Shown: piece after piece, positions 2,298-37,296 of the stretch | Layout of the letters: every line of letters starts with the position of its first letter | Position numbering within the stretch: the first letter of the stretch is position 1 | Origin: Thermoanaerobaculia bacterium | GTDB taxonomy: Bacteria > Acidobacteriota > Thermoanaerobaculia > Multivoradales > JAIOJS01 | Direction of reading: 5' to 3' | Assembly: GCA_036005845.1 (NCBI GenBank) | Contig: DASYQD010000117.1 | Span: 49,581-113,580 of the forward strand | DNA: 64,000 nt | Notes under the pieces: generated by a model | What the model saw: the letters and a program-made list of their open reading frames with translations, nothing else | What the model was told of the DNA's origin: nothing | Database searches by the model: none | Made by a program: the position numbers and the translations under genes

Positions 2298-5200
2298 ATG
2301 AGCCGCTACTCGTCGTTCACCGCCCGCCGTGTGTTGGTCGCCGCCCTCGCCGCGCTGGGGTTCGCCGCGTCGGCGGCGGCAAGTCCTCCGACATCTCCGC
2401 CGCCGCAAACCGGCAACGATCCCGTCGAGCTGATCGTACTGCTCGCGGCCGGCCCCGGGGTTCCCACCCCCGAGACCTTCGTCGACGACGTCAATCACGG
2501 ACGCCCGGGCATCCCGTTGCCGGTCCCGGCGCAGAGCGCACGGACGGCGCTCACCTTCCGTGCGTCAGGGCGCAGCCTCGCCTTGCTGCGTGCCCATCCC
2601 GAAAGCGCCGCCGCTCGCCTCGAGCGCTACGTCGTCTTGAGCTTCCCGGCCGGCGCCAACGTCGAGGCCATCGAGCGTGCCCTGGAAAGGCACCCTTGGG
2701 TGCTCCTCGTCGAGGAGAACACTTTCGCGTCGTTCTCCGTCACCCCCAACGACCCCAAGTTCCCGGTGCAATCGGACCCCACGCAGTACCAATGGGGAAG
2801 CCATGCGCTGAACCTGCCGGCCGCGTGGGACCGCATCGAAGGACATGCCTACATCGGCATGGCCGACACCGGTCTCGAGGTCAATCACCCCGATCTGCGC
2901 GCCTTTCATTTGGCCGGGGCCAGCTACGTCTACGACGGCGGCAACTTCCGGCCGCAGCTGTCGTGGGATTTCATCCACAACGACAACAACGTCGACGAAG
3001 GGGACGGCTCCTTCGGTGGTTCGCTGGCCGGTCACGGTACGCACACCAGCGGCATCGTCGCCGCAACCGCCAACAATGGTATCGGCGTCGCCGGTGCCTG
3101 TTGGCACTGCAGCCTGCTGATGGGCAGGATGAGTGGCAGCAAGACGAGCGTCGCGAACGCCATCAGTTGGGACGCCAGGCACGGTGCCCAGATCGTCAAT
3201 GCCAGCCTGGGCTGGCCGACCAACGATCCCAACCTCGGCATCGTCCTCACGGCGGTGGCATTGGCCGACGACCGCGACATCGCCATGTTCGCGTCGCCGG
3301 GCAATGACAAGATGGACATCGAGTTTCCCGCCAGCGATTCGCGGGTGATTTCCGTCGGCGGCACCGAGTTCGACGGCTCGTTCTGGGTCGAAGAAGTCTG
3401 CCCTCGGCCCGGTTACACCGGCACCATCGAGTGCGGCTCGAACTACACCGTCACGCCCGGCACGAAGATGCAGGACCTGGTAGCCCCGGCCCAGAAGGTG
3501 TTGTCGACCTTCTATACCGGCGCCGAGTGGAACACCGCCCTGGGTTGTGGCGACAGCACCGATCCGACCCCCGGTTATGGTCTCTGCACGGGCACGTCGA
3601 TGTCAGCTCCCTACGCCGCCGGCGCCGCCGGCCTGTTGCGGTCCGCCAATCCGCTGCTCTCGAAAGGCGCCATCCGCAGCCTGTTGGTCAACTACGCGAG
3701 CCGTGCGAACGCCTGGAGCCCGCAGTTCGGGTATGGCCTTCCCAATGTCGCTGCCTCGGTGACGGCTGCATTGGGTTTCGCGGCCAGCCAATCGCTGCCG
3801 AACCGTCTGACTCCGTTCTTCAGCCTTTACAGCTCGATTGCCACCGACTTTTCCTACACCACAGTGCCGCAAGCGGCGGCTGCGGCGATCCTCGATTCGG
3901 GGTCCGCCTACGATCCGACCGGCCCAGCCGTTGCTGGCTACCCGAAGTTTCCCGGCGACCCCCTGTGCTCGGGCGTTCCCTGCTTCCCCCCGCGAGCCTC
4001 GGTCTTCGTGTTTGCCGGCGAGAAGCCACCGTTCGCCGGCGCTCCGCCGCTGGTGCCCTTGTACCGGATGACGTTCACACCCGCCGATTCTCAAGACGTC
4101 AACCGCGACGTCAGCTATGCCACCACCATCACCGAGGTCCTCGGCTTCAAGAACGGTTTCGGCTACGACCTCGACGGAATCGAGGGTTATATCTACCAGC
4201 CCTGCACGCCCGAGCCTTCGTGCATCCCGGCGGGAGCGGTGCGCCTCTACCGTCGGTACAACTCGACGCGCCTCGACTATGCGATCTTTCCGGAATCGGA
4301 GCTCGTCAGCATGGCGAGCCTGGGATACACCTCGCCGGGCGCTTTCGCCGAAGTGCTCGGCTACGCGTATCCCAACATCGACAGCGATGGCGACAGCTTG
4401 ATCGACGGCTTCGAGCTGTTGATGGGCACCAATCCGGTGGTGGCCGACAGCGACGGTGACGGCAGCTCGGACGGTGCCGAAGCCCTCAACTATCCCTACT
4501 GCGACCCGCTCCGGCCTGGGTGCGGCGGATCGTCCGTGTGGGTGTCGGTCGGCGGCACGGACGCCAACGACTGCAGCCGAGCCATGCCGTGCCGGACTTT
4601 TGCCACAGCGCTCGCCAAGAGCCCTCCGGGCGGCGAGATCAGAGTCTTGGACTCCGGCGACTTCGGGCCGCTGACGATCAACAAGGCGATTTCCGTCGTC
4701 GCCAACGGCGTCCTCGGCGGCATCCAGGCCGGCGGCGGCAGCACCGCCATTACCGTCAATGCCGGCGCCGGCGACAAGGTCGTCTTGCGCGGCCTCACCA
4801 TCGACGGCCTGAGCGCAGGGCTAGACGGCATTTCCTTCGTCGCGGGTGGCTCGCTGTTCGTCGAGAGCTGCACGATCAACAACTTCAGCCGCTATGGGAT
4901 CGACTTCGTGCCGACGGGCGGCAGCGGCGCTCTGGCGGTCACCGACACGGTCCTCCGCAACAACGGCGTCGGCGCCACCGGCGGCGGCCTTCACTTGCTC
5001 GCGACCGCCGCGCCAGGCCCGGTCGCGGCGATCGACGGACTGCGATCCGAGAACAACGTTTTCGGGCTCAAGGCAGAGACCTATGGGGCGGTCACGATTC
5101 GCCACAGTCTCGCCGCGAGCAACGCCTTCAGCGGATTCTCGGCGGTGACGCCGGGCGGCTCCGCCAGCGATGCGGTCCGCATGCTGATCGAAAACAGCGT

Positions 5201-5396
5201 CGCCACCCACAACGGGACCAATGGCGTCGTGGCCAGCGGCCCCGGCTCGACGGTCACCATCAGCAACCTGGCGGTGACCGACAATCAGACCGGGCTGATC
5301 ACCGGCTCGAACGGCGTCATCGTCTCGCTCGGCAACAACAAGGTGTCGGGCAACGTCACCAACGGTACGCCGACGCAGACCGTTCCGAACCAGTAG
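2298..5396 (+). CDS. Secreted S8 (subtilase) serine protease with acidic Ca-binding repeats and a C-terminal beta-helix domain
   Basis: Catalytic motifs IGMADTG (Asp), GHGTHTSG (His) and GTSMSAP (Ser). Signal peptide and prodomain present; DSDGDSLIDGFE/DSDGDGSSDGAE repeats; the last ~285 aa are paralogous to 1337-2278. Confidence 0.9.
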   Translation: MSRYSSFTARRVLVAALAALGFAASAAASPPTSPPPQTGNDPVELIVLLAAGPGVPTPETFVDDVNHGRPGIPLPVPAQSARTALTFRASGRSLALLRAHPESAAARLERYVVLSFPAGANVEAIERALERHPWVLLVEENTFASFSVTPNDPKFPVQSDPTQYQWGSHALNLPAAWDRIEGHAYIGMADTGLEVNHPDLRAFHLAGASYVYDGGNFRPQLSWDFIHNDNNVDEGDGSFGGSLAGHGTHTSGIVAATANNGIGVAGACWHCSLLMGRMSGSKTSVANAISWDARHGAQIVNASLGWPTNDPNLGIVLTAVALADDRDIAMFASPGNDKMDIEFPASDSRVISVGGTEFDGSFWVEEVCPRPGYTGTIECGSNYTVTPGTKMQDLVAPAQKVLSTFYTGAEWNTALGCGDSTDPTPGYGLCTGTSMSAPYAAGAAGLLRSANPLLSKGAIRSLLVNYASRANAWSPQFGYGLPNVAASVTAALGFAASQSLPNRLTPFFSLYSSIATDFSYTTVPQAAAAAILDSGSAYDPTGPAVAGYPKFPGDPLCSGVPCFPPRASVFVFAGEKPPFAGAPPLVPLYRMTFTPADSQDVNRDVSYATTITEVLGFKNGFGYDLDGIEGYIYQPCTPEPSCIPAGAVRLYRRYNSTRLDYAIFPESELVSMASLGYTSPGAFAEVLGYAYPNIDSDGDSLIDGFELLMGTNPVVADSDGDGSSDGAEALNYPYCDPLRPGCGGSSVWVSVGGTDANDCSRAMPCRTFATALAKSPPGGEIRVLDSGDFGPLTINKAISVVANGVLGGIQAGGGSTAITVNAGAGDKVVLRGLTIDGLSAGLDGISFVAGGSLFVESCTINNFSRYGIDFVPTGGSGALAVTDTVLRNNGVGATGGGLHLLATAAPGPVAAIDGLRSENNVFGLKAETYGAVTIRHSLAASNAFSGFSAVTPGGSASDAVRMLIENSVATHNGTNGVVASGPGSTVTISNLAVTDNQTGLITGSNGVIVSLGNNKVSGNVTNGTPTQTVPNQ

Positions 5397-5665: not shown

Positions 5666-8600
5666 ATGCGGGCCGTAATCGCGGTAGCAGTGTTGTCGGT
5701 GCTGGTTGCGGGCGGTCCGCTGGCGGCGGTGACCTTTACCGTCAACAACGTCGGCGACCAGCCGGACGCCAACACCGCTGACAACGTCTGCTCGATCGCC
5801 GGCCAGCCGACCATCTGTACCTTGCGGGCGGCGATCCAGCAGGCCAACGCCACCGCCGGCACCGACACCATCGCCTTCAGCATCACCGGCGCCGGCCCGC
5901 ACGTGTTCGCGCCGGGCTCGGCGCTGCCGAGCTTCACGCAGGCGGTGATCGTCGACGGCACCACCGAGCCGAGCTACGCCCAGTTCGCGCCAGTGGTGGT
6001 GATCAACGGCGCCGGCGCCGGCGCGGGAGTCAACGGGCTGGTCTTCGCGGCGGGCTCCAACGGCAGCACGCTGCGCGGCGTCGTCGTGCAGGGCTTCGGC
6101 GGCAACGGCGTGGTGGTGCAGTCGGACGGCTGCACCGTGGAGCGCACCTACTCCGGCACCAACAACGTCGGCACCACCGCCGCCGGCAACACCGGCGCCG
6201 GCTTCCTGGTGAGCGGCAACTCCAACACCTTGGGGGTGAGCAACGACAGCCCGAAGCGCATCCTCGCCTCCGCCAACGGCGGCGGCGGAGTCGTCATCAC
6301 CGGCAGCTCGAACGCCCTGCACTCCTCGCACGTGGGCACCAACCTGGGAGGGAGCGCGGCGCTGGGCAACACCGGGGCCGGCGTCGCCATCTCGGGCTCT
6401 TCGAACACGCTCAACCACAACCTCGTCTCCGGCAACTCGCAGGAAGGCGTACGCATCACCGCCGGCTCCGGCAACGTGGTGGGCGGCAATCACCTGATCG
6501 GCATGAACGCCACCGGCACCGCCGCCCTGCCCAACGGCGGCGACGGGGTGAGCATCCAGGGCGGCACCGGCAACACCATCGGCGACTTCAACACCATCTC
6601 CGGCAACAGCGGCAACGGCGTGTCGATCTCCGGCGCGTCGACGACCGGCAACGTCGTGCGCAGCAACTTCATCGGCACCGCGGTGTCGGGGACCACGGCG
6701 CTGCCCAACGCGATGGTAGGCGTGCTCCTCTCCGCCACCGTCGGCAACACCGTCGGCGGCACCGCCGCGGGCGCCGGCAACGTCATCTCGGGCAACGGCG
6801 GCATCGGCGTGCGGGTGGCGTCGGGCAGCGGCAACTTCATCCAGTCCAACGACATCGGCACCAACCCCAGCGGCAACGGCGCCATCGCCAACGGCGGCAC
6901 CGGCATCACGGTGGAGGGATCGCCGAACACCACCGTCGGCGGCGGCGAGGGCGACGGCAACCTGGTGTCGGGAAACGTCGGGTCCGGCATCGTGGTCAGC
7001 GGCGCTGCCAACGGCACCATCGTCATCGGCAACACCGTCGGCACCGCCGTGGCGGGCACCCCGGCGCTGCCCAACACCGTCGACGGCATCGCCCTCTTCG
7101 GCACCAGCGGCGTCATCGTCGGCGGCGACGCGACGGTGGGCTCGGACAACGTCGTCAGCGGCAACGGCAGGCACGGCATCTACGTCTCGGGCGGCAGCGG
7201 CAACCAGATCCGCATCAACGAGATCGGCACCGACGGCCTGGGCACCACCGGCGTCGGCAATGCCGGCCACGGCCTGTTCCTCGAGAACACTTCGACCAAC
7301 ACGGTCGACACCTCGTTGATCAGCGCCAACCACCTCGACGGCGTGCGCATCTCCGGCGGCAACGCCAACACGCTCACCGCGCTGGTCGTCGGTGTCGACG
7401 TCACCGGTATGACGGCGCTCGGCAACTGGGGAAACGGCCTCACCATCCTCAACGCGACGAACACCGTCATCGGGCAGAGCGTCGGCGGCAAGGGCAACAC
7501 CTTCAGCGGCAACTTGCAGTCGGGAATCGTCATCAGCGGCGCCGGGTCGTTCGGCAACACCATCCACAACACCCTGATCGGCCCCAATACCGCCGACAGC
7601 GCCAACATCGGCAACGGCGGCTGGGGCGTGCTGATCGCCGGCAGCGTCGACAACACCATCGGCGGTCCGCTTTCGGTGGACGCCAACCGCATCCGCGGCA
7701 ACGGCGTTTTCTTCAATGCCGCCAACGGCGGCAACGGCACCGGCGGCATCGGCATCCTCTCCGGCAACGGCAACGAGATCCGGCACAACCTGATCTCGGG
7801 CAACTACGGCCTGGGCATCGACCTCGACGCCGACGGCGCGCTACCCTTCGACGGCATCAGCGCCAACGACGCGAGCGACGCCGACAACGGCGCCAACCTG
7901 CTGCAGAACCGGCCGGTGATCACCAGCGCCACGATCGGCGCCGGCAACACCGCGGTGGCGGGCACGCTGACGAGCACCCCCAACACCACCTTCGACATCG
8001 AGATCTACACCAGCTCGCGCTGCGACCCCAGCGGTGCCGGCGAGGGGACGTCGGCCTCGGCCACGGTGAGCACCACCACCAACGGCAGCGGGCAGGCGAG
8101 CTGGTCCTCCAACTTCGCCCAGGCGCCGGCCGGATCGGTGTTCACCGCCGTCGCCACCGATCCCAACGGCAACAGCTCGGAGTTCTCCAACTGCGTCCCC
8201 ATCTACTCGGGGGCGCCGATCGAGTTCGACGGCGATCCCGCCTCCGAGATCTTCGTCTTCTCGGGCGGCGCCTGGACCCAGTTCGACTACACGACCGGCA
8301 GTCAGACGAGCTCGGTGTGGACGGGCACCGGTACCGGCTGCCGGCAGGTGATGATGGATTACGACGGCGACGGCCGTGACGATCTCACCCAGCTCTGCGG
8401 CGGCGCCTGGCACTTCTTCAACGACAACGGCAGCTACAACAAGGGCATCTGGGTGGGCGACATCCCGGGCAACCTGCCGGTGCCGGCGGACTACGACGGC
8501 GACGGCCGGGACGACGTGGTGGTCTACAACAACGGCAGCTGGAGCTTCTTCGACTTCCAGAGCGGCAACTACCAAGCCTCGCGCAGCCGCTTCACCGGCA

Positions 8601-9055
8601 GCGGCGCCGGCCAGATCCCGGCACCCATCGACTACGACGGCGACGGCAAGGCCGAGCTCAGCGTCTACAACGGCGGGGCCTGGCACTTCTTCGACGAAGC
8701 GGGCGCCTACGTGAAGGGCATCTGGGTGGGCCCCGGCGCCTTCCCGGTGCCCGGCGACTACGACGGCGACGGCCACGACGACGCCATGATCTTCCGCGAC
8801 GGCGTGTGGTCGTACTACGACTTCGCGACCGGCGCCTACGTGCCGGGCAAGTCGGTGTACACCGGCACGCCGCCGCACATCAGCGGCGGCACCACGACAC
8901 CCGAGCCGCTCGACGTCGACGGCAACGGCACGCTCGACTTCACGCTCTTCGCCGGCGGTCCGTGGCACTTCTACAACGCCAACGGCACCTACGCGAAGGG
9001 CATCTGGACGGGCGGCGTCGGCGAGAAGCCGCTGTCGGCCCGCCCGCAGCAGTAG
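5666..9055 (+). CDS. Large secreted protein: CSLREA-like N-terminus, parallel beta-helix repeats, C-terminal six-repeat DYDGDG (FG-GAP/VCBS-like) propeller
   Basis: AGGAGGAG RBS and signal peptide. CTLRAAIQQAN, many GNxISGNxGxG repeats and NLLQNRPVITSA, then six DxDGDG/GAWHFF repeats from about 8210. Confidence 0.85.
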   Translation: MRAVIAVAVLSVLVAGGPLAAVTFTVNNVGDQPDANTADNVCSIAGQPTICTLRAAIQQANATAGTDTIAFSITGAGPHVFAPGSALPSFTQAVIVDGTTEPSYAQFAPVVVINGAGAGAGVNGLVFAAGSNGSTLRGVVVQGFGGNGVVVQSDGCTVERTYSGTNNVGTTAAGNTGAGFLVSGNSNTLGVSNDSPKRILASANGGGGVVITGSSNALHSSHVGTNLGGSAALGNTGAGVAISGSSNTLNHNLVSGNSQEGVRITAGSGNVVGGNHLIGMNATGTAALPNGGDGVSIQGGTGNTIGDFNTISGNSGNGVSISGASTTGNVVRSNFIGTAVSGTTALPNAMVGVLLSATVGNTVGGTAAGAGNVISGNGGIGVRVASGSGNFIQSNDIGTNPSGNGAIANGGTGITVEGSPNTTVGGGEGDGNLVSGNVGSGIVVSGAANGTIVIGNTVGTAVAGTPALPNTVDGIALFGTSGVIVGGDATVGSDNVVSGNGRHGIYVSGGSGNQIRINEIGTDGLGTTGVGNAGHGLFLENTSTNTVDTSLISANHLDGVRISGGNANTLTALVVGVDVTGMTALGNWGNGLTILNATNTVIGQSVGGKGNTFSGNLQSGIVISGAGSFGNTIHNTLIGPNTADSANIGNGGWGVLIAGSVDNTIGGPLSVDANRIRGNGVFFNAANGGNGTGGIGILSGNGNEIRHNLISGNYGLGIDLDADGALPFDGISANDASDADNGANLLQNRPVITSATIGAGNTAVAGTLTSTPNTTFDIEIYTSSRCDPSGAGEGTSASATVSTTTNGSGQASWSSNFAQAPAGSVFTAVATDPNGNSSEFSNCVPIYSGAPIEFDGDPASEIFVFSGGAWTQFDYTTGSQTSSVWTGTGTGCRQVMMDYDGDGRDDLTQLCGGAWHFFNDNGSYNKGIWVGDIPGNLPVPADYDGDGRDDVVVYNNGSWSFFDFQSGNYQASRSRFTGSGAGQIPAPIDYDGDGKAELSVYNGGAWHFFDEAGAYVKGIWVGPGAFPVPGDYDGDGHDDAMIFRDGVWSYYDFATGAYVPGKSVYTGTPPHISGGTTTPEPLDVDGNGTLDFTLFAGGPWHFYNANGTYAKGIWTGGVGEKPLSARPQQ

Positions 9056-31871: not shown

Positions 31872-32417
31872 ATGGACGACGACGCGCGGCTCATCGCCCT
31901 GCTGCTCGCCGGAGACGACGCAGCCATCGCCGAGGTGCGTGGCTGGGTCGCCGCCGCCGTGGGCCGCTATCGCGCGCGGCTCCTCGGCGACGCCGAGGAC
32001 CTCGAGCAGGAGGCGCTGCTCGACTTGATGGAGTCGCTGGCAAACGGCCGCTTCCGCGCCCAGAGCCGGCTCGCCACCTACGTCCACTCCTACGCCCGGT
32101 TCAAGTGCATCGACCGCCTGCGCACCCTCGGCCGCCGCGACATGGTCGAGCTCGACGACGAGGCGCTGCACACGGCGGCGCCATCGCCGCTCGAAGAGCT
32201 GACGCAGCGCGAGAGCGCGGAATTGGCGCAGCGGGTCGTCGCCGCGCTGCCCGCGGGCTGCCGGGAGCTCTGGGAGATGATCGCCGACGGCATGTCCTAC
32301 CAGGCGATGAGCGCGGCGATGGGCGTCGGCGAAGGCGCCATCCGCGTGCGCGTCCACCGCTGCCGGCAGCGGGCGCTCGCCATCCGACTGCGGCTGCTCG
32401 CCGGAGAGGACCTGTAA
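31872..32417 (+). CDS. ECF RNA polymerase sigma factor
   Basis: Region 2 DAEDLEQEALL...CIDRLR; region 4 MSYQAMS...GAIRVRVHRCRQ. Confidence 0.9.
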   Translation: MDDDARLIALLLAGDDAAIAEVRGWVAAAVGRYRARLLGDAEDLEQEALLDLMESLANGRFRAQSRLATYVHSYARFKCIDRLRTLGRRDMVELDDEALHTAAPSPLEELTQRESAELAQRVVAALPAGCRELWEMIADGMSYQAMSAAMGVGEGAIRVRVHRCRQRALAIRLRLLAGEDL

Positions 32418-32440
32418 CGGAATCGGGCCGGCGACGACAA
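32413..32440 (+). promoter_or_regulatory. Putative ECF-type promoter overlapping the sigma stop codon
   Basis: TGTAAC (32413-32418), 16 nt, CGACAA (32435-32440). Fits the AAC...CG ECF consensus and lies just upstream of the anti-sigma gene. Confidence 0.55.
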
Positions 32441-32446
32441 ACCGGG

Positions 32447-33151
32447 GTGAAGGCACCCCTTGCCGTGACACCCTCCACGCCCGAGCCCTGCCGCCTCACC
32501 ACGCTGGCGCTGCCGTGGCTGCTCAACGGCAGCCTGGCGCCGGCGGAACGGTGCGAGGTGCGCGAGCACCTGATCCACTGCCCGAGCTGCCGCGCCGAGC
32601 TCGAGCGGACGCGCGAGACGCTGGTGGTGTTCCGTGCCGCCGCGGCGGCGACGGAGCAGCCGCGCGTGGCCGCGGCCGGCGCGACTCGGATCGCCAGCCG
32701 CGGCAGGGTGCTGCGGCCGCTGGCCTGGGCGGCGATGGTCGCCGCGATCCTGGGAAGCGCGTGGCTGGCGCGGACGTGGGTCGCCGGGCCCACGCCGATG
32801 CGCAGCGCCGAACGGCAACGGCAGGCACCGCCGTCCGCGCCAGCGGTCACGACGCCGGTGCGCATGGCCAGCGTCGCACCACTTGCCTCGCCGCCGCCGT
32901 CCGCCGCTCCGGTCTCCGCGTCGAGGCCGTCCGCGAGCGCCGCGCGGCCGCGGCGGCGCGCCGACAGCCACACCGCGGCGCCCACGCGTCCCGAGGTGAT
33001 CTCCGTGGCCAGCTTCGAGAACGGCACGGTCGCGTCGACGAACGGCGAGGTCGAGGTCGCGCCCGCCAGCTCGAAGATCTCGACGGTCGACTTCGAGAAC
33101 GGCGAGCTTGCCGGCAGTCAGATTCATGCCATACCTGGACGGATACAATGA
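32447..33151 (+). CDS. ZAS (zf-HC2) transmembrane anti-sigma factor with duplicated C-terminal FENG motif
   Basis: LPWLLNGSL...EHLIHCPSC (HxxxCxxC). One TM (LAWAAMVAAILGSAWLA), a Pro/Ala linker, then ISVASFENG and ISTVDFENGEL. Start is 32447 or 32465. Confidence 0.8.
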   Translation: MKAPLAVTPSTPEPCRLTTLALPWLLNGSLAPAERCEVREHLIHCPSCRAELERTRETLVVFRAAAAATEQPRVAAAGATRIASRGRVLRPLAWAAMVAAILGSAWLARTWVAGPTPMRSAERQRQAPPSAPAVTTPVRMASVAPLASPPPSAAPVSASRPSASAARPRRRADSHTAAPTRPEVISVASFENGTVASTNGEVEVAPASSKISTVDFENGELAGSQIHAIPGRIQ

Positions 33152-33198: not shown

Positions 33199-34779
33199 AT
33201 GCGTAGTGTCCTTCGTTCCACCGCCACGGCCGCCGCGCTGCTGCTGGCCGGCGCCAGCGGCCTGCTGGCCAACTCGATCGCGGTGCAGCCGGGCCGCCAC
33301 GGCGGTACCTGCGGCGTCAACAACACCAACAACGACCGCTACGGCGGCAACTGCGGCGCGCGCGTCACGCTCGACACCGGCGCTGCGCCGTTCGCCTACG
33401 TGCAGGACAACACGCCCTCGGGCGAAGGCGCTTACCGCGTCCGCTTCTACGTCAACACCAGCACGATGGCGTTCACCGCCGGCAGCTTCGACGTCTTCGC
33501 CGCCTACGATCCGGTGAGCGATCCGCCGGCCGGCAGCTCCGCCGGCACTCCGGTGCTGCGCGCCCAGCTCGGCAGCGGCAACCCGCGCGTGCTCAACGTC
33601 TTCGGGTTGCTCGACGCCGGCGGCGAGACGGCGATCGGTCCGTTCTCGATCGCCAGCGGCTGGCACGCCATCGAGATCGAGTGGACCCGCGCCGGCGCCG
33701 GCCAGAACAACGGCCACCTCAACCTCTGGCTCGACGGCGTCGCGCAGACCGGCACCAACGGCCTCGACAACGACACCCACACCATCAACACCGTCCGCTG
33801 GGGCTACGTTTCCGGCAGCCCGACGTTCAGCGGCCGCCTGCTGATCGACGAGTTCGCCTCGCAGCGCACCGGCCAGATCGGGCTCGTCCCCTTCACCGGC
33901 CAGCAGATGGCCGCCGACTTCGACGGCGACGGCGACGGCGACGTCGTCCTCGAGCGCAACGGCTCGTGGCTGTTCTACGACTACGCCACCGGCACCCTCG
34001 CCAACACGGTTGCCCTCGGCAGCGGCGGCTCGTGCATCCCCACTCCGGGTAACTACGACGGCGACTTCGACAGCGACATCTCCCGCCTCTGCTCGGGGGC
34101 GTGGCACTTCTACAACGCCAACGGCAGCTACGCGGGCGGCATCTGGACCGGCTCGCCGCCGGACGTCTATCCGGCGCCGGCGGACTACGACGGCGACGGC
34201 GACACCGACGTCGTCATCTTCGACAACGGCGCCTGGCACTTCTTCGCCTATCCCGGCGGCGCCTACCTCGGCGGCTACTGGACGGGCGGCTCCAACAGCC
34301 AGGTGCGTCCGGTGCCGCTCGACTACGACGGCGACGGCGCGGCCGAGCTCAGCCTCTACGGCCAGGGCGCCTGGCACTTCTTCAACGACAACGGGACTTA
34401 CAACCACGGTATCTGGATGGGCGACACGCCGGGCAACATCCCGGTGCCGTTTGACCGCGACGGCGACGGCGACGAGGACGCGGTGCTGTTCAACAACAAC
34501 AACACCTGGCACTTCTTCGACTTCGCGACGGGCGCCTACCAGGGCGGGGTGATCACGGCGCGCCCGGGCGGCGGCTCCTACACCAACCCGCAGCCGGCGC
34601 CGGTCGACGTCGACGGTGACGGCCACATGGAGCTGAGCGTCTACGAGGTCGTCGGTGGCAACGGGTTCTGGCACTTCTTCTCGAGCACCGGCACCTTCCT
34701 GAAGACGATCAACACCGGCGCCGCCAACAACGACAATCCGATCTCGCGCCGGTTGCGCGTGGCGTCGCCCGGCATCTAG
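33199..34779 (+). CDS. Secreted protein: jelly-roll/LamG-like N-terminal domain plus six-repeat DYDGDG propeller
   Basis: GAGGAG RBS and signal peptide. AYVQDNTP..YRVRFY..WHAIEIEW..LWLDG..LDNDT..VRWG..DEFASQR, then six DxDGDG/GAWHF repeats ending NPISRR. Confidence 0.8.
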   Translation: MRSVLRSTATAAALLLAGASGLLANSIAVQPGRHGGTCGVNNTNNDRYGGNCGARVTLDTGAAPFAYVQDNTPSGEGAYRVRFYVNTSTMAFTAGSFDVFAAYDPVSDPPAGSSAGTPVLRAQLGSGNPRVLNVFGLLDAGGETAIGPFSIASGWHAIEIEWTRAGAGQNNGHLNLWLDGVAQTGTNGLDNDTHTINTVRWGYVSGSPTFSGRLLIDEFASQRTGQIGLVPFTGQQMAADFDGDGDGDVVLERNGSWLFYDYATGTLANTVALGSGGSCIPTPGNYDGDFDSDISRLCSGAWHFYNANGSYAGGIWTGSPPDVYPAPADYDGDGDTDVVIFDNGAWHFFAYPGGAYLGGYWTGGSNSQVRPVPLDYDGDGAAELSLYGQGAWHFFNDNGTYNHGIWMGDTPGNIPVPFDRDGDGDEDAVLFNNNNTWHFFDFATGAYQGGVITARPGGGSYTNPQPAPVDVDGDGHMELSVYEVVGGNGFWHFFSSTGTFLKTINTGAANNDNPISRRLRVASPGI

Positions 34780-35203
34780 CCAAGCGGCGAGCCCTTCGGT
34801 CCCGCAGAGCTCTCGCCCGCAGCGGCGCTGGCCCTCCAAGCCGGCGCCCTGCGGGCGATTCTGGTTTTGGTCAGGGCAGCATGCGGCGCGAGATCGGGCG
34901 ATCGGTGCTGGCGGCGCCGGTGTTGACGGTGCGCAGGAAAGTGCCGTTGACCGAGAAGAAGTGCCAGAAGCCGGTGCCGCCCACCACTTCGTAGACGCCC
35001 AGCTCGGGCTTGCCGTCGCCGTCGAGATCGAGCGGCGCGGGACGGGGGTTGGTGTAGGCGCCGCCGCCGGGCCGCGGCGTCATCACGCCGCCCTGGTAGG
35101 CGCCGGTCGCGAAGTCGAAGAAGTGCCAGGAATTGTTGTTGTTGAACAGCACCGGGTCCTCGTCGCCGTCGCCGTCACGGTCGAACGGCACCGGGATGTT
35201 GCC
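34432..35203. repeat. Long imperfect inverted repeat formed by the 3' ends of two convergent propeller genes (arms about 34432-34751 and 34883-35203)
   Basis: Near-identical coding stretches such as GNIPVPFDRDGDGDED.VLFNNNN.WHFFDFATGAYQGGV, with long exact nucleotide matches. Confidence 0.85.
34813..34868 (+). terminator. Long hairpin with T-rich tail between the convergent genes
   Basis: TCGCCCGCAG (34813-34822) and CTGCGGGCGA (34849-34858) plus an inner GC stem, followed by TTCTGGTTTT. Confidence 0.65.
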
Positions 35204-35713
35204 GGCGGTGTTGCCGACCCAGATGCCCTTGAGGTAGCTGCCGTTCTCGTTGAAGAAGTGCCAGGCGCCCAGCGAGTAGAGGCTCTTGTCGGTGAAGCCG
35301 TCGCCGTTGAAGTCCAGCGGCACCGGCACAGCGCTGGGGTCGCTTCCCGTCCAGCGGCTGCGCGCGCTGTCGTAGGTGCCGGTGGTGTAATTGTAGAAGT
35401 GCCAGGCGCCGGCGTCGAAGAAGACGACGTCGGTGATGCCGTCGCCGTCGTAGTCGGCAGGCACCGGGAAAGCGCTCTGCGGCGCGCCCGTCCAAATGCC
35501 TTTGATGTAGCTGCCGTTGGCATTGTAAAAGTGCCAGGCGCCGGAGCAGAGCTGCGCGAAGTCGATGTCGCCATCGCCGTCGAAATCGCCGGGGGCCGGG
35601 ATGCAGGTGGGCCCGCCGCCGGTGACGATCGACTGCGCCCAGGCCGGCGACGCGGCGACGGCGAGCGATGCGGCGGCGAGCAGCCAGAAGCTTGCGAGGC
35701 GCAGTGGTCTCAT
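34871..35713 (-). CDS. Secreted five-repeat DYDGDG propeller protein lacking repeat 1
   Basis: GGAG RBS, ATG 35713, signal peptide MRPLRLASFWLLAAASLAVAASPAWA. Starts at the Cys-containing repeat 2 and ends RPISRRMLP. Confidence 0.85.
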   Translation of the reverse strand: MRPLRLASFWLLAAASLAVAASPAWAQSIVTGGGPTCIPAPGDFDGDGDIDFAQLCSGAWHFYNANGSYIKGIWTGAPQSAFPVPADYDGDGITDVVFFDAGAWHFYNYTTGTYDSARSRWTGSDPSAVPVPLDFNGDGFTDKSLYSLGAWHFFNENGSYLKGIWVGNTAGNIPVPFDRDGDGDEDPVLFNNNNSWHFFDFATGAYQGGVMTPRPGGGAYTNPRPAPLDLDGDGKPELGVYEVVGGTGFWHFFSVNGTFLRTVNTGAASTDRPISRRMLP

Positions 35714-35727
35714 CGTGACGTCTCCGC

Positions 35728-37296
35728 TCAATCGCCCGGCCACAGCGGGAACTCGATCCACGCGCCGGCGCCGCGGTAGACCCAGACCTCGGCGCGGCCG
35801 TCGCCGTTGAAGTCGCCCGCCGGCGCGTTGCGGCGCCGGTGGCAGGTGGTCGAGAGGCCGGCGACGAAGGCGTTCATCCGCGCCGACACGCGGTTGGGCT
35901 GGTTGCCGTAGGGGTGCGGCACGCCCGCCGCGGTGGCGCCGAAGGTCAGGCTGGTGTTGCTCATGAAGCTCGGCGCGATGTTGTGGCAGTAGCTCATGAT
36001 GGTGCCGTTGCCCTGGCCCTGCACGCCGCAGTTGGCGGTCCCCAGCGACGGCACGCAGGTGGCGCCGGAGTAGCAGGCCTGCAGCGTGCCGTTGACCGAC
36101 ATCTGCTCGCCCGAGGAGCAGCGGTCGACCTCCTGGCCGGCGCCGAAGAGCACGTTGTAGCAGTGGGTGTGCGGCGAGTTGAAGTTGTGGCCGATCTCGT
36201 GCGTGGCGCCGAGCAGGTCCCAGTTCACGGCGTTGGGGTTGGCGGGGTTGAAGGTGCCGCTGATGCCCATGGTGACGCCGTAGCCGCCGCCCCATTGGCC
36301 CGCGGCGCAGGTGCCGCCGGCGCTGAAGTCGGCCGAGCAGAGGACGCCGATCCAGGCGATTCCGGCGGTGGTGCTCTTGCCGCTCAGGAAATGAACGGTG
36401 CCACGCGGGAACGTCGGCCGGTTGGTGTGCCACCAGGTGCCGAGCTCGCACAGCGCCGTGGATGGGCTGGTGGCGGTCCAGGGATCGCTGGTGGTGGCGC
36501 CGGTCCACGCCGAGACCAGGTTGACGCGCAGCGTGGTGTTGACGTCGCGGTAGTAGATGGCCGACATCGCGCCCATCAGGTCGCCGATGTAGGCCGCCAT
36601 GGTGTCGACCGAGCCGAAGCGGTTGAACAGCTCGACGTCGGTCTCGATGGCGACGGTGATCGAGTAGAGCGCGGCGGCCTTGTCACCGGGCGCCGCCGGC
36701 TCGAAGGGAGCTGCCTCGGCGCCGGCGCCGAGCTCGTCGAGAGCGGTGGCGGGGACCGGCAGCGCGTCGGCGTCGCACTCGAAGCCGCGGGCGTCGGGCG
36801 CCGCGTCCGCCGCCGCCTTGGCGATCAGCGGCTCGCCGGCGAGGGCCGCGTCCGCGGCTCCGAGAACGTACGTCGCGCCGTCGGCGATGACCAGGCCGCG
36901 CACGTCCCCGGCCTCGCCGACGGAGAGGAAAGCCGTCGAGCTCGGATCGCCTTCGACGCCGCCCCGGAAGAACGTCCGGTTCGGCACCGCGTGCGTTGTC
37001 ACCTTGCTGCCGTTCTCGTGCACCACCACAACGGCGTCGGGCGTGAAGAGCTCGAAGCGTTCGAGGGTGAGGGCCACCTGGCGCTCTGCCAACGGCACGC
37101 CGGCGACGCGCAGGCCGCCGTCCACCGGCACTTGCCGCGCGCGGGCGGCGAGGGTTTCCTTCGGCAGCGTGAAGCTGAGCCGCATCTGCGCCGTCTGCGC
37201 GCCGGCGAGCGCGGGGCTCAGCGCGGCGAGGACGACCCAGAGGAGCGTCCAGGCCCGGCGGCGGCCCGTCCCGAGCCGGGGACGTCTAGGTGGCAT
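35728..37296 (-). CDS. Secreted M12/reprolysin-like zinc metalloprotease ending in a single DFNGDG repeat
   Basis: AGGAG RBS, signal peptide and prodomain. VAIETDVELF, GIAWIGVLC and HEIGHNFNSPH zinc motif, GTIMSYC Met-turn; C-terminus AGDFNGDGRAEVWVYRGAGAWIEFPLWPGD. Confidence 0.88.
   Translation of the reverse strand: MPPRRPRLGTGRRRAWTLLWVVLAALSPALAGAQTAQMRLSFTLPKETLAARARQVPVDGGLRVAGVPLAERQVALTLERFELFTPDAVVVVHENGSKVTTHAVPNRTFFRGGVEGDPSSTAFLSVGEAGDVRGLVIADGATYVLGAADAALAGEPLIAKAAADAAPDARGFECDADALPVPATALDELGAGAEAAPFEPAAPGDKAAALYSITVAIETDVELFNRFGSVDTMAAYIGDLMGAMSAIYYRDVNTTLRVNLVSAWTGATTSDPWTATSPSTALCELGTWWHTNRPTFPRGTVHFLSGKSTTAGIAWIGVLCSADFSAGGTCAAGQWGGGYGVTMGISGTFNPANPNAVNWDLLGATHEIGHNFNSPHTHCYNVLFGAGQEVDRCSSGEQMSVNGTLQACYSGATCVPSLGTANCGVQGQGNGTIMSYCHNIAPSFMSNTSLTFGATAAGVPHPYGNQPNRVSARMNAFVAGLSTTCHRRRNAPAGDFNGDGRAEVWVYRGAGAWIEFPLWPGD

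Follow-up and report, generated by a model that had tools for sequence, protein, structure and literature searches.

In a 64,000-nucleotide (nt) stretch of DNA from a Thermoanaerobaculia bacterium (assembly GCA_036005845.1, contig DASYQD010000117.1, positions 49,581 to 113,580), which is referred to as the window, two adjacent genes on the minus strand encode a putatively secreted zinc metalloprotease (35728-37296) that ends in a single propeller repeat unit and a neighbour with its own signal peptide (34871-35713) that contains five such units. Sequence comparison and structure prediction make it probable that both proteins are parts of one naturally split, six-bladed propeller of the FG-GAP/VCBS type with calcium loops, which docks the enzyme onto a lectin-like partner. 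In this lineage of soil Acidobacteria, many secreted proteins would normally carry a six-blade lectin-like propeller as a C-terminal fusion. Where the propeller is split, the enzyme would keep a tag of about 30 residues with the calcium loop and the inner strands of blade 1, and the next gene would make blades 2-6 behind a signal peptide.

The split gene pair and its junction

The DNA around the split pair has a G+C content of about 70%. The product of the protease open reading frame is identical to the called gene P0001 (522 amino acids, aa) and starts with a signal-peptide-like leader. It was assigned to the M12B (reprolysin-like) proteases by the Pfam models Reprolysin_5 (65.1 bits, cut-off 27), Reprolysin_3 (46.4 bits, cut-off 22.4) and Reprolysin_4 (45.7 bits, cut-off 22), and its relatives carry the name M12 family metallo-peptidase [Thermoanaerobaculia bacterium]. 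The zinc-binding motif HEIGHNFNSPH (36169-36201, minus strand) contains the three histidines and the catalytic glutamate of the M12B zinc site HExxHxxGxxH, except that asparagine replaces the usual metzincin glycine, and the motif is kept in the homologues.

The last 32 residues of the protease, APAGDFNGDGRAEVWVYRGAGAWIEFPLWPGD (35731-35826, minus strand), form one FG-GAP-type unit with the calcium-loop motif DxNxDG, two clear strands and the cap FPLWPG. The unit ends directly at the TGA stop codon (35730-35728), which agrees with an earlier, sequence-only reading of this DNA that had the protease end in exactly one repeat unit and then stop. Every close homologue of the protease (47-80% identity, 487-527 aa) ends in the same unit with the consensus DAPPxDFNGDGRSEVxIYRNGAWLEFPxWPG, and across ten orthologues (47-80% identical overall) 15 of the 34 positions are invariant. 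A pooled Nei-Gojobori analysis of the ten loci with DNA gave a ratio of nonsynonymous to synonymous differences (pN/pS) of 0.36 for the tail versus 0.63 for the preceding 220 protease codons, values that are only rough, as synonymous sites approach saturation. These ratios place the tail under purifying selection, with a constraint at least as strong as that on the enzyme body. That it is a functionless, decaying remnant of gene fission or truncation is very improbable. The existence of fused forms makes it clear that a fused ancestor underwent fission, but the invariant positions, the pN/pS value below that of the catalytic domain and the retention of this kind of tail on at least five unrelated cargos argue against decay.

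The pattern of one unit followed by a stop codon was found only at the expected genes in the window and in related loci, and in none of 77 unrelated FG-GAP loci. These control loci were collected by a scan of genome contigs with the generic pattern PADY[DN]GDG and show 24-40% identity. A profile search with the 34-residue tail yielded 24,705 matches, and the best 150 were all multi-repeat FG-GAP proteins (5-25 repeats); because whole-protein scores sum over repeats, this search gave no list of tailed cargos.

The tail is short, always lies at the extreme C-terminus, has a conserved end motif (FPxWPG or a proline cap) and occurs on unrelated secreted enzymes. These features would also suit a C-terminal sorting or retention signal that derives from a blade but is no longer a blade, with the partner nearby by shared ancestry only. 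We regard this explanation as quite unlikely. Pfam gave no match to known sorting domains (PEP-CTERM, T9SS CTD and similar) in the protease, and on reading the last 32 residues neither the hydrophobic helix nor the basic tail of PEP-CTERM-type signals was found. The loci examined contain no conserved candidate for a sorting enzyme. Furthermore, the tail retains the full calcium-loop and strand pattern of a blade, and fused proteins carry a whole propeller at the position of the tail.

The partner gene (34871-35713, minus strand) encodes a precursor of 280 aa and a mature protein of 254 aa. Its signal peptide MRPLRLASFWLLAAASLAVAASPAWA (35636-35713, 26 aa) was read from the sequence, with a cleavage site after AWA and in front of QS, and in all 21 aligned stand-alone homologues of the partner a hydrophobic leader ends just before (D)VWTG. 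The mature N-terminus QSIVTGGG (35612-35635) aligns with the VWTG of fused proteins, which is the strand after the hairpin of blade 1, and would therefore be an orphan outer strand (strand 4) of this blade. T31 and G32 are invariant in the 21 partners, and the partner from the window reads IVTG at the place of VWTG. The first cysteine follows about five residues after VWTG in stand-alone partners, and the cysteine pair C37...C56 (35546-35605), invariant in the 21 partners and in all fused forms, brackets the first unit of the partner, blade 2.

The five FG-GAP/VCBS units of the partner (34955-35599) are located at 35599-35525, 35467-35393, 35326-35252, 35194-35117 and 35041-34955. Their DxDxDG-type loops, which are predicted to bind cations, read DFDGDG, DYDGDG, DFNGDG, DRDGDG and DLDGDG, and the loop of the tail reads DFNGDG. 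All 21 stand-alone partners have five units versus six in every fused relative. Close to the C-terminus lies the motif PISRR (34883-34897), the presumed closing ('velcro') strand, with an invariant S275 and an R276 that is at least 90% conserved; the ending ...D.PISRR.L is common to every propeller of the family, fused or split. Pfam matched FG-GAP_3 (PF13517) to the partner with 55.3 bits (cut-off 26.9) and to the two six-unit proteins of the window with 45.9 and 43.3 bits, and Pfam and NCBIfam contained no partner family beyond FG-GAP. The sequence-only reading had let the partner begin precisely at repeat 2. This is correct for the first full unit, which is the unit with the cysteine pair, but the mature protein starts eight residues earlier with the IVTG strand of blade 1.

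The TGA stop codon and the 14-nt spacer (35714-35730, minus strand; GCGGAGACGTCACG) separate two genes that are located in different frames. In the intergenic stretch 35727-35714 a GGAG motif (35726-35723) is positioned eight bases ahead of the partner ATG at 35713. The earlier description of a next gene that starts 14 nt on, with its own GGAG ribosome binding site, a signal peptide and five repeats, was confirmed in the sequence in all points. No terminator-like site was found between the protease and partner genes, and the 91 nt that separate the convergent genes contain a terminator-like hairpin (34845-34857, plus strand) close behind the partner. From the 14-nt gap and this terminator placement, co-transcription of protease and partner is plausible.

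Contigs that cross the junction gave no indication of an error. A Logan contig from the source soil-metagenome run spans 35437-36100 with zero differences, and in a contig of another run, with about 90% identity, the sequence across the junction differs by substitutions but not by indels. Across loci the spacer measures 3, 9, 14, 15, 17, 20, 21 or 53 nt, or the genes overlap, and the frames vary; because spacer lengths and frames differ between loci, there is no conserved site for frameshift or readthrough. It is hardly credible that the split arose as an artefact of assembly or sequencing, or that programmed frameshifting or readthrough joins the genes. It is true that the two frames overlap in a long spurious open reading frame (34871-36508) and that the gap measures only 14 nt. 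However, more than 15 independent assemblies show the split, with spacers and frames that differ among them, and the junction is identical in the independent contig of the same run and free of indels in the divergent strain. Moreover, every partner has a full signal peptide, which a fusion would bury. The artefact was therefore rejected because metagenome contigs support the junction, and the fusion by frameshift or readthrough because spacers and frames vary by locus and all partners keep the signal peptide.

In contigs from four soil and rhizosphere metagenomes the read depth over the window positions 35400-35830 showed 10- to 30-fold spikes at the DxDGDG-loop stretches 35424-35471, 35568-35591 and 35784-35831. 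DNA words of the DxDGDG loops are common to very many related repeat genes in those four communities.

Recurrence of the split and its genomic surroundings

We compared 14 distinct loci at the DNA level, each with a tailed M12 gene. In 11 of them (the window, L001, L003, L081, L082, L083/84, L086, L087, L091, L099 and L100) a gene for a signal peptide and five units follows immediately downstream on the same strand. The sequence-only reading had pointed to related genomes as a place to look for tailed cargos beside five-repeat genes and for fused orthologues. The former were found at these 11 loci and with other cargos, the latter for two cargos, the M12 protease and the N-terminal domain (N-domain) of the protein encoded at 33199-34779. 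The distant relatives P0031, P0034 and P0080 (about 750 aa) are M12 proteases fused to six units, in which blade 1 (ADFDGDG...AWxxY...VWTG) is followed by the unit with the cysteine pair, and P0080 shares its contig with a split pair. The split is recurrent, conserved and under purifying selection; it is neither an artefact nor the one-off fission that had been considered as a possible objection.

Two intact modules are present in the window, both on the plus strand. The convergent paralogue 33199-34779 consists of a 'lectin-like' N-domain and a complete six-unit propeller and represents the unsplit reference state. The second unsplit example, 5666-9055, is a beta-helix (NosD-like) protein with a complete six-unit propeller. 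Both contain the six units and the cysteine pair in unit 2 that had been ascribed to them.

The N-domain of 33199-34779 is split off in L002, L088, L090, P0388 and P0389. In these cases a 270-aa protein ending in ...ADFNDDGRSDVVIYRNGTWIDYPLWPNG is followed by a gene for a signal peptide and five units, which again starts with (V)ITG...C. Single-blade tails beside a five-unit partner were also detected on GSDH-type dehydrogenases in L003, L082 and L100 (endings ...AWLFFPP, ...SWYFFP and ...SWHFLAE), and in L085 on a trypsin-like/lysyl endopeptidase (...TWVSYPIP) and on an amine-oxidase-like protein (...TWVPFAVP). Two tails and one partner are combined in L002, L003, L082, L085 and L100, and the genome GCA_031396975.1 contains at least two partners and three tails; a single partner may serve several differently tagged enzymes. 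Neither the N-domain of 33199-34779 nor a 218-aa protein of L085 matched a Pfam or NCBIfam family. Complete six-unit propellers are fused to an S8 peptidase (L081), to beta-helix proteins (window, L100), to an IPT-domain protein (P0124) and to a bare lipoprotein leader (L003, P0143-P0151). Judged by these sequences, secreted proteins of this lineage commonly bear the six-blade module at their C-terminus, in the fused as well as in the split state.

The proteins with the bare leader (L003 11769-12830, P0143, P0144, P0148 and P0151) contain only a lipoprotein-type leader (LTGC), a short linker and the complete six-unit propeller, and the propeller may therefore have a function of its own in the cell envelope, independent of an enzyme cargo. 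In P0031, P0034, P0080, P0124, P0135 and others, as well as in 33199-34779, the six blades alternate between an odd type (vvvFRnGAWlFyDy.TG) and an even type (dfsvYxnGAWHFYNxDGSYxKGIWTG). The module thus resembles a threefold repeat of a two-blade unit, and the tails correspond to the odd blades.

Between the partner gene and the propeller-coding part of the neighbouring fused gene there is a large inverted repeat, with 82% identity over 448 nt (34309-34756/34879-35326) and 75% over 257 nt (34017-34273/35365-35621). In the lineage of L002 and L090 the split counterpart of 33199-34779 has a tail that resembles the M12 tail much more closely than it does its own blade 1. Together these two observations suggest that the junction cassette moves by recombination or gene conversion. 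We tentatively consider a general 'blade-tag' system of the Thermoanaerobaculia possible, in which any secreted enzyme with a single-blade tag could dock into a shared open five-blade lectin, and in which the junction cassette (tail end, stop codon, ribosome binding site, signal peptide and VWTG) would spread among fused genes by recombination between homologous blades.

Some loci deviate in their gene arrangement. In L098 (3-350) a partial upstream gene encodes a single unit (ADFDGDGVSDWVVYRSGTWFYLGP) with a cysteine-rich C-terminal extension of about 45 residues and overlaps the start of the five-unit partner gene. L085 (8207-9983), L096 (4451-6605) and L097 (1254-2722) contain a trio, in varying gene order, of a five-unit partner, a secreted protein of about 215 aa without a family and a 371-aa protein with a weak copper-amine-oxidase-like match and a single-blade tail at its end. 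The split pairs of L003, L081, L082 and L100 are often located beside long runs of glycosyltransferase, methyltransferase and epimerase genes of the exopolysaccharide type, and a tailed GSDH-type dehydrogenase is also found nearby.

The window is abundant in secreted hydrolases bearing add-on modules. Directly upstream of 5666-9055, the gene 2298-5396 (plus strand) encodes a large, secreted, S8 subtilase-like protein whose C-terminal part is beta-helix-like. Just upstream of 33199-34779 lie genes for an ECF-type sigma factor (31872-32417, plus strand) and a zf-HC2-type anti-sigma factor (about 32414-33151, plus strand). L001 and L002 share the block of sigma factor, anti-sigma factor, propeller protein and M12 protease in synteny, with a second reprolysin gene beyond it.

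Predicted structures and the position of the cut

AlphaFold2 was used to model the mature partner from the window, based on the 21-sequence alignment, and the six-unit propeller of the paralogue 33199-34779. The partner was predicted with a local confidence score (pLDDT) of 90.5 and a global score (pTM) of 0.84 and shows five four-stranded blades; its first 10 residues (pLDDT 73) and its last 13 residues (pLDDT 76 falling to 54) are not strands. The six-unit model (pLDDT 92.4, pTM 0.88) has a fully ordered blade 1. Here, the segment equivalent to VWTG forms the strand 31-36 (pLDDT >90) and 'NPI' of the PISRR motif the strand 277-279 (pLDDT about 89). Across both predictions each unit has three to four strands.

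Most tails on cargos other than M12 end right after strand 3 with a proline cap (FFP, FFPP, PFAVP or SYPIP directly before the stop codon) and have no strand 4. As the N-terminus of the partner offers exactly this strand 4, a completion in trans of the type 'three strands plus one' is indicated. The register, as it can be read from the sequences and the separate models, fits a scheme with inner strands from the donor and the outer strand from the receiver: strand 4 is missing from the tails, and the mature partner opens with VWTG. From sequences and models combined, the tail most likely gives the calcium loop and the inner strands of blade 1; the N-terminus of the partner would give the outer strand, and its C-terminus would help to close the ring. 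The earlier proposal of a split propeller with the tail as docking tag fits all the comparative evidence, but the position of the cut has to be revised. It would not lie between blades 1 and 2, as the outer strand of blade 1 and the C-terminal closing strand would both stay with the partner.

For the assembly we propose the following course. Both proteins would be exported separately, as suggested by the signal peptides. The partner is predicted to fold as an open arc of five blades, with the VWTG and PISRR strands loose. The tag would then slot between blades 6 and 2, with the N-terminal strand of the partner as outer strand and its C-terminal strand as an aid in closure. In this way the enzyme would be held non-covalently on a propeller that, to judge from its structural neighbours, may bind glycans, and would be brought to a polysaccharide substrate or to a surface polymer of its own cell.

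Several observations weigh against this docking model. The tail scores (BLOSUM) were 70, 71 and 67 against blades 1, 3 and 5, and 44, 59 and 47 against blades 2, 4 and 6; it matches blades 3 and 5 as well as blade 1, and similarity alone gives no unique blade 1 identity. The assignment to blade 1 was made because this position precedes the cysteine-pair unit in the fused proteins and because the tail starts with DF and not with DY. The role of PISRR is tentative because the six-unit query began at the methionine just before ADFDGDG and did not contain the residues that possibly form strand 1 of blade 1. M12-type tails bear an extra PxWPG that resembles strand 4 and would duplicate the N-terminal strand of the partner. 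In two of the 14 M12 loci (L090, and L002 together with its copies L088/L089) the protease gene is convergent with a five-unit gene that belongs to another tailed cargo, and the protease has no partner of its own; in a further one (L092) no FG-GAP gene was found within 4.6 kb downstream of the tailed M12 gene. The gene that precedes the partner in L096 and L097 encodes no tail. Finally, the model of the partner alone is compact and confident, and the protein may be stable and functional by itself.

Some of these points would be expected if the two pieces were independent. The five-unit protein would then be a self-sufficient lectin, either a closed ring or a working arc, and the tail could serve, for example, the calcium-dependent homo-oligomerisation of enzymes into a multi-tail propeller. 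Besides the confident model of the partner alone and the tailed proteases of L092, L002 and L090 without a partner of their own nearby, this explanation is favoured by engineered single propeller motifs, which form homo-pentamers, and by single-motif FG-GAP proteins in natural genomes (PMC4735018). We nevertheless consider it unlikely. It leaves unexplained that the neighbour is exactly one blade short of the six blades of the family, that two conserved orphan strands are ordered only when blade 1 is present, and that the same cargos are fused to exactly six units. In addition, no five-bladed target was among the top 50 Foldseek matches of the partner model, which is only weak evidence against a closed five-blade ring; TM-scores of about 0.6 were obtained for six- and seven-bladed targets alike and do not separate an open from a closed form.

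Likely role and comparison with known propellers

Foldseek searches with the six-unit model identified UmbA4 (PDB 9oee) as the best match, followed by the N-acetylglucosamine (GlcNAc) lectins PVL (2bwr) and AAL-2 (4tqm). Both predicted models matched propeller lectins with TMq values of 0.60-0.66, E-values of 1e-8 to 4e-11 and identities of 13-18%, and the Foldseek probability was 1.00 for PVL, UmbA4, the TcB propeller and ITFG2. Searching the PDB with a profile yielded no match at E <= 0.001 and hence no solved structure or lectin related by sequence. UmbA4 is the six-bladed lectin of the Streptomyces umbrella toxin particles and binds teichuronic acid between its blades (PMC13274773). Like PVL, UmbA4 and AAL-2, which are the closest by fold and bind glycans between blades, the present protein belongs to the group of FG-GAP-like or VCBS-like propellers. 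These lectins are all single-chain propellers, and the present protein is lectin-like by predicted fold.

A glycan-binding role is the best guess for the propeller because of these lectin neighbours in fold and because the loci are often located among glycosyltransferase, methyltransferase and epimerase genes. The task of the propeller could be to hold enzymes on a polysaccharide substrate or on a polymer of the own cell surface. The sequence-only reading had offered adaptor, anchor or inhibitor as roles of the partner. A lectin-like adaptor gains support from the Foldseek matches to PVL and UmbA4, whereas an anchor motif was not found in the partner and an inhibitor is without support.

To our knowledge, nearly all propellers consist of a single chain, natural rings assembled from different chains are very rare, and blade donation by a partner is well known only for eukaryotic coat and pore proteins. 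Sec13 and Seh1 are open six-bladed propellers that are completed by an insertion blade of Nup145C, Sec31 or Sec16 (or Nup85). In the complex with Sec16, three strands of the seventh blade of Sec13 are donated by Sec16 and the outermost strand is provided by residues 1-6 of Sec13 (PMC2922654). The similarities to the present system comprise a propeller that is one blade short, a short donor blade from another protein, the N-terminus of the receiver as outermost strand and several donors per receiver. As Pfam found only FG-GAP families and no WD40 in the partner, Sec13 and Seh1 are an analogue and not a homologous family. There are also clear differences. Sec13 is a eukaryotic, cytoplasmic member of the WD40 superfamily that is completed from six to seven blades by a blade located internally or N-terminally in large helical scaffold proteins. 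The system described here is bacterial, has signal peptides on both parts, is of the FG-GAP/VCBS type with calcium loops and would be completed from five to six blades by a C-terminal tag on an enzyme. Furthermore, fused and split versions coexist in one lineage, and the complex is proposed from sequences and models.

Propeller rings that consist of several chains are known from tachylectin-2 fragments, ancestral single motifs, the designed proteins WRAP and Pizza and natural RSL-type lectins (PMC4735018, PMC6805158, PMC8023676), and natural oligomeric propellers make up 'a minute fraction' of the total (PMC9218822). The proposed complex would share with them the ring built from more than one chain and belongs to the same VCBS/tachylectin supercluster. 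In contrast to these assemblies of identical and mostly engineered pieces, it would be an asymmetric hetero-assembly of one plus five units that links an enzyme to a binding module. A further parallel exists to donor-strand complementation in chaperone-usher pili, where a secreted, incomplete beta fold is likewise completed outside the cytoplasm by a strand of another subunit. The pili differ in their Ig-like fold, the single donor strand, the formation of a polymer and the dedicated chaperone and usher.

Phrase searches of the literature for split, open, incomplete or heteromeric beta-propellers and for blade complementation returned no paper, and no bacterial, secreted split propeller of the FG-GAP type with multiple cargos was found. 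The claim of the sequence-only reading that no such arrangement had been described can be kept for this version, but not for the principle, as the completion of an open propeller by the blade of a partner is already known from Sec13 and Seh1. On the basis of sequences and models, the new aspects appear to be the bacterial setting, the export of both parts, the FG-GAP/VCBS fold with calcium loops, the C-terminal tag on several kinds of enzymes, the shared receiver and the coexistence of fused and split forms.

If the docking model is correct, the split pair would be a bacterial, extracellular counterpart of the blade insertion in Sec13 that acts after export, and a natural propeller ring made from unequal chains. 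Proteases and dehydrogenases would be linked to a probable glycan-binding module, alongside their fused ancestors, which would represent a new bacterial route to extracellular enzyme-lectin complexes from interchangeable parts and a natural experiment on the tolerance of repeat folds to fission. The tag of about 30 residues and the receiver of 254 residues might be usable as a calcium-dependent pair for peptide-protein coupling. For annotation it would mean that hundreds of 'hypothetical' five-repeat genes of about 275 aa belong together with the odd C-terminal extension of M12 peptidases.

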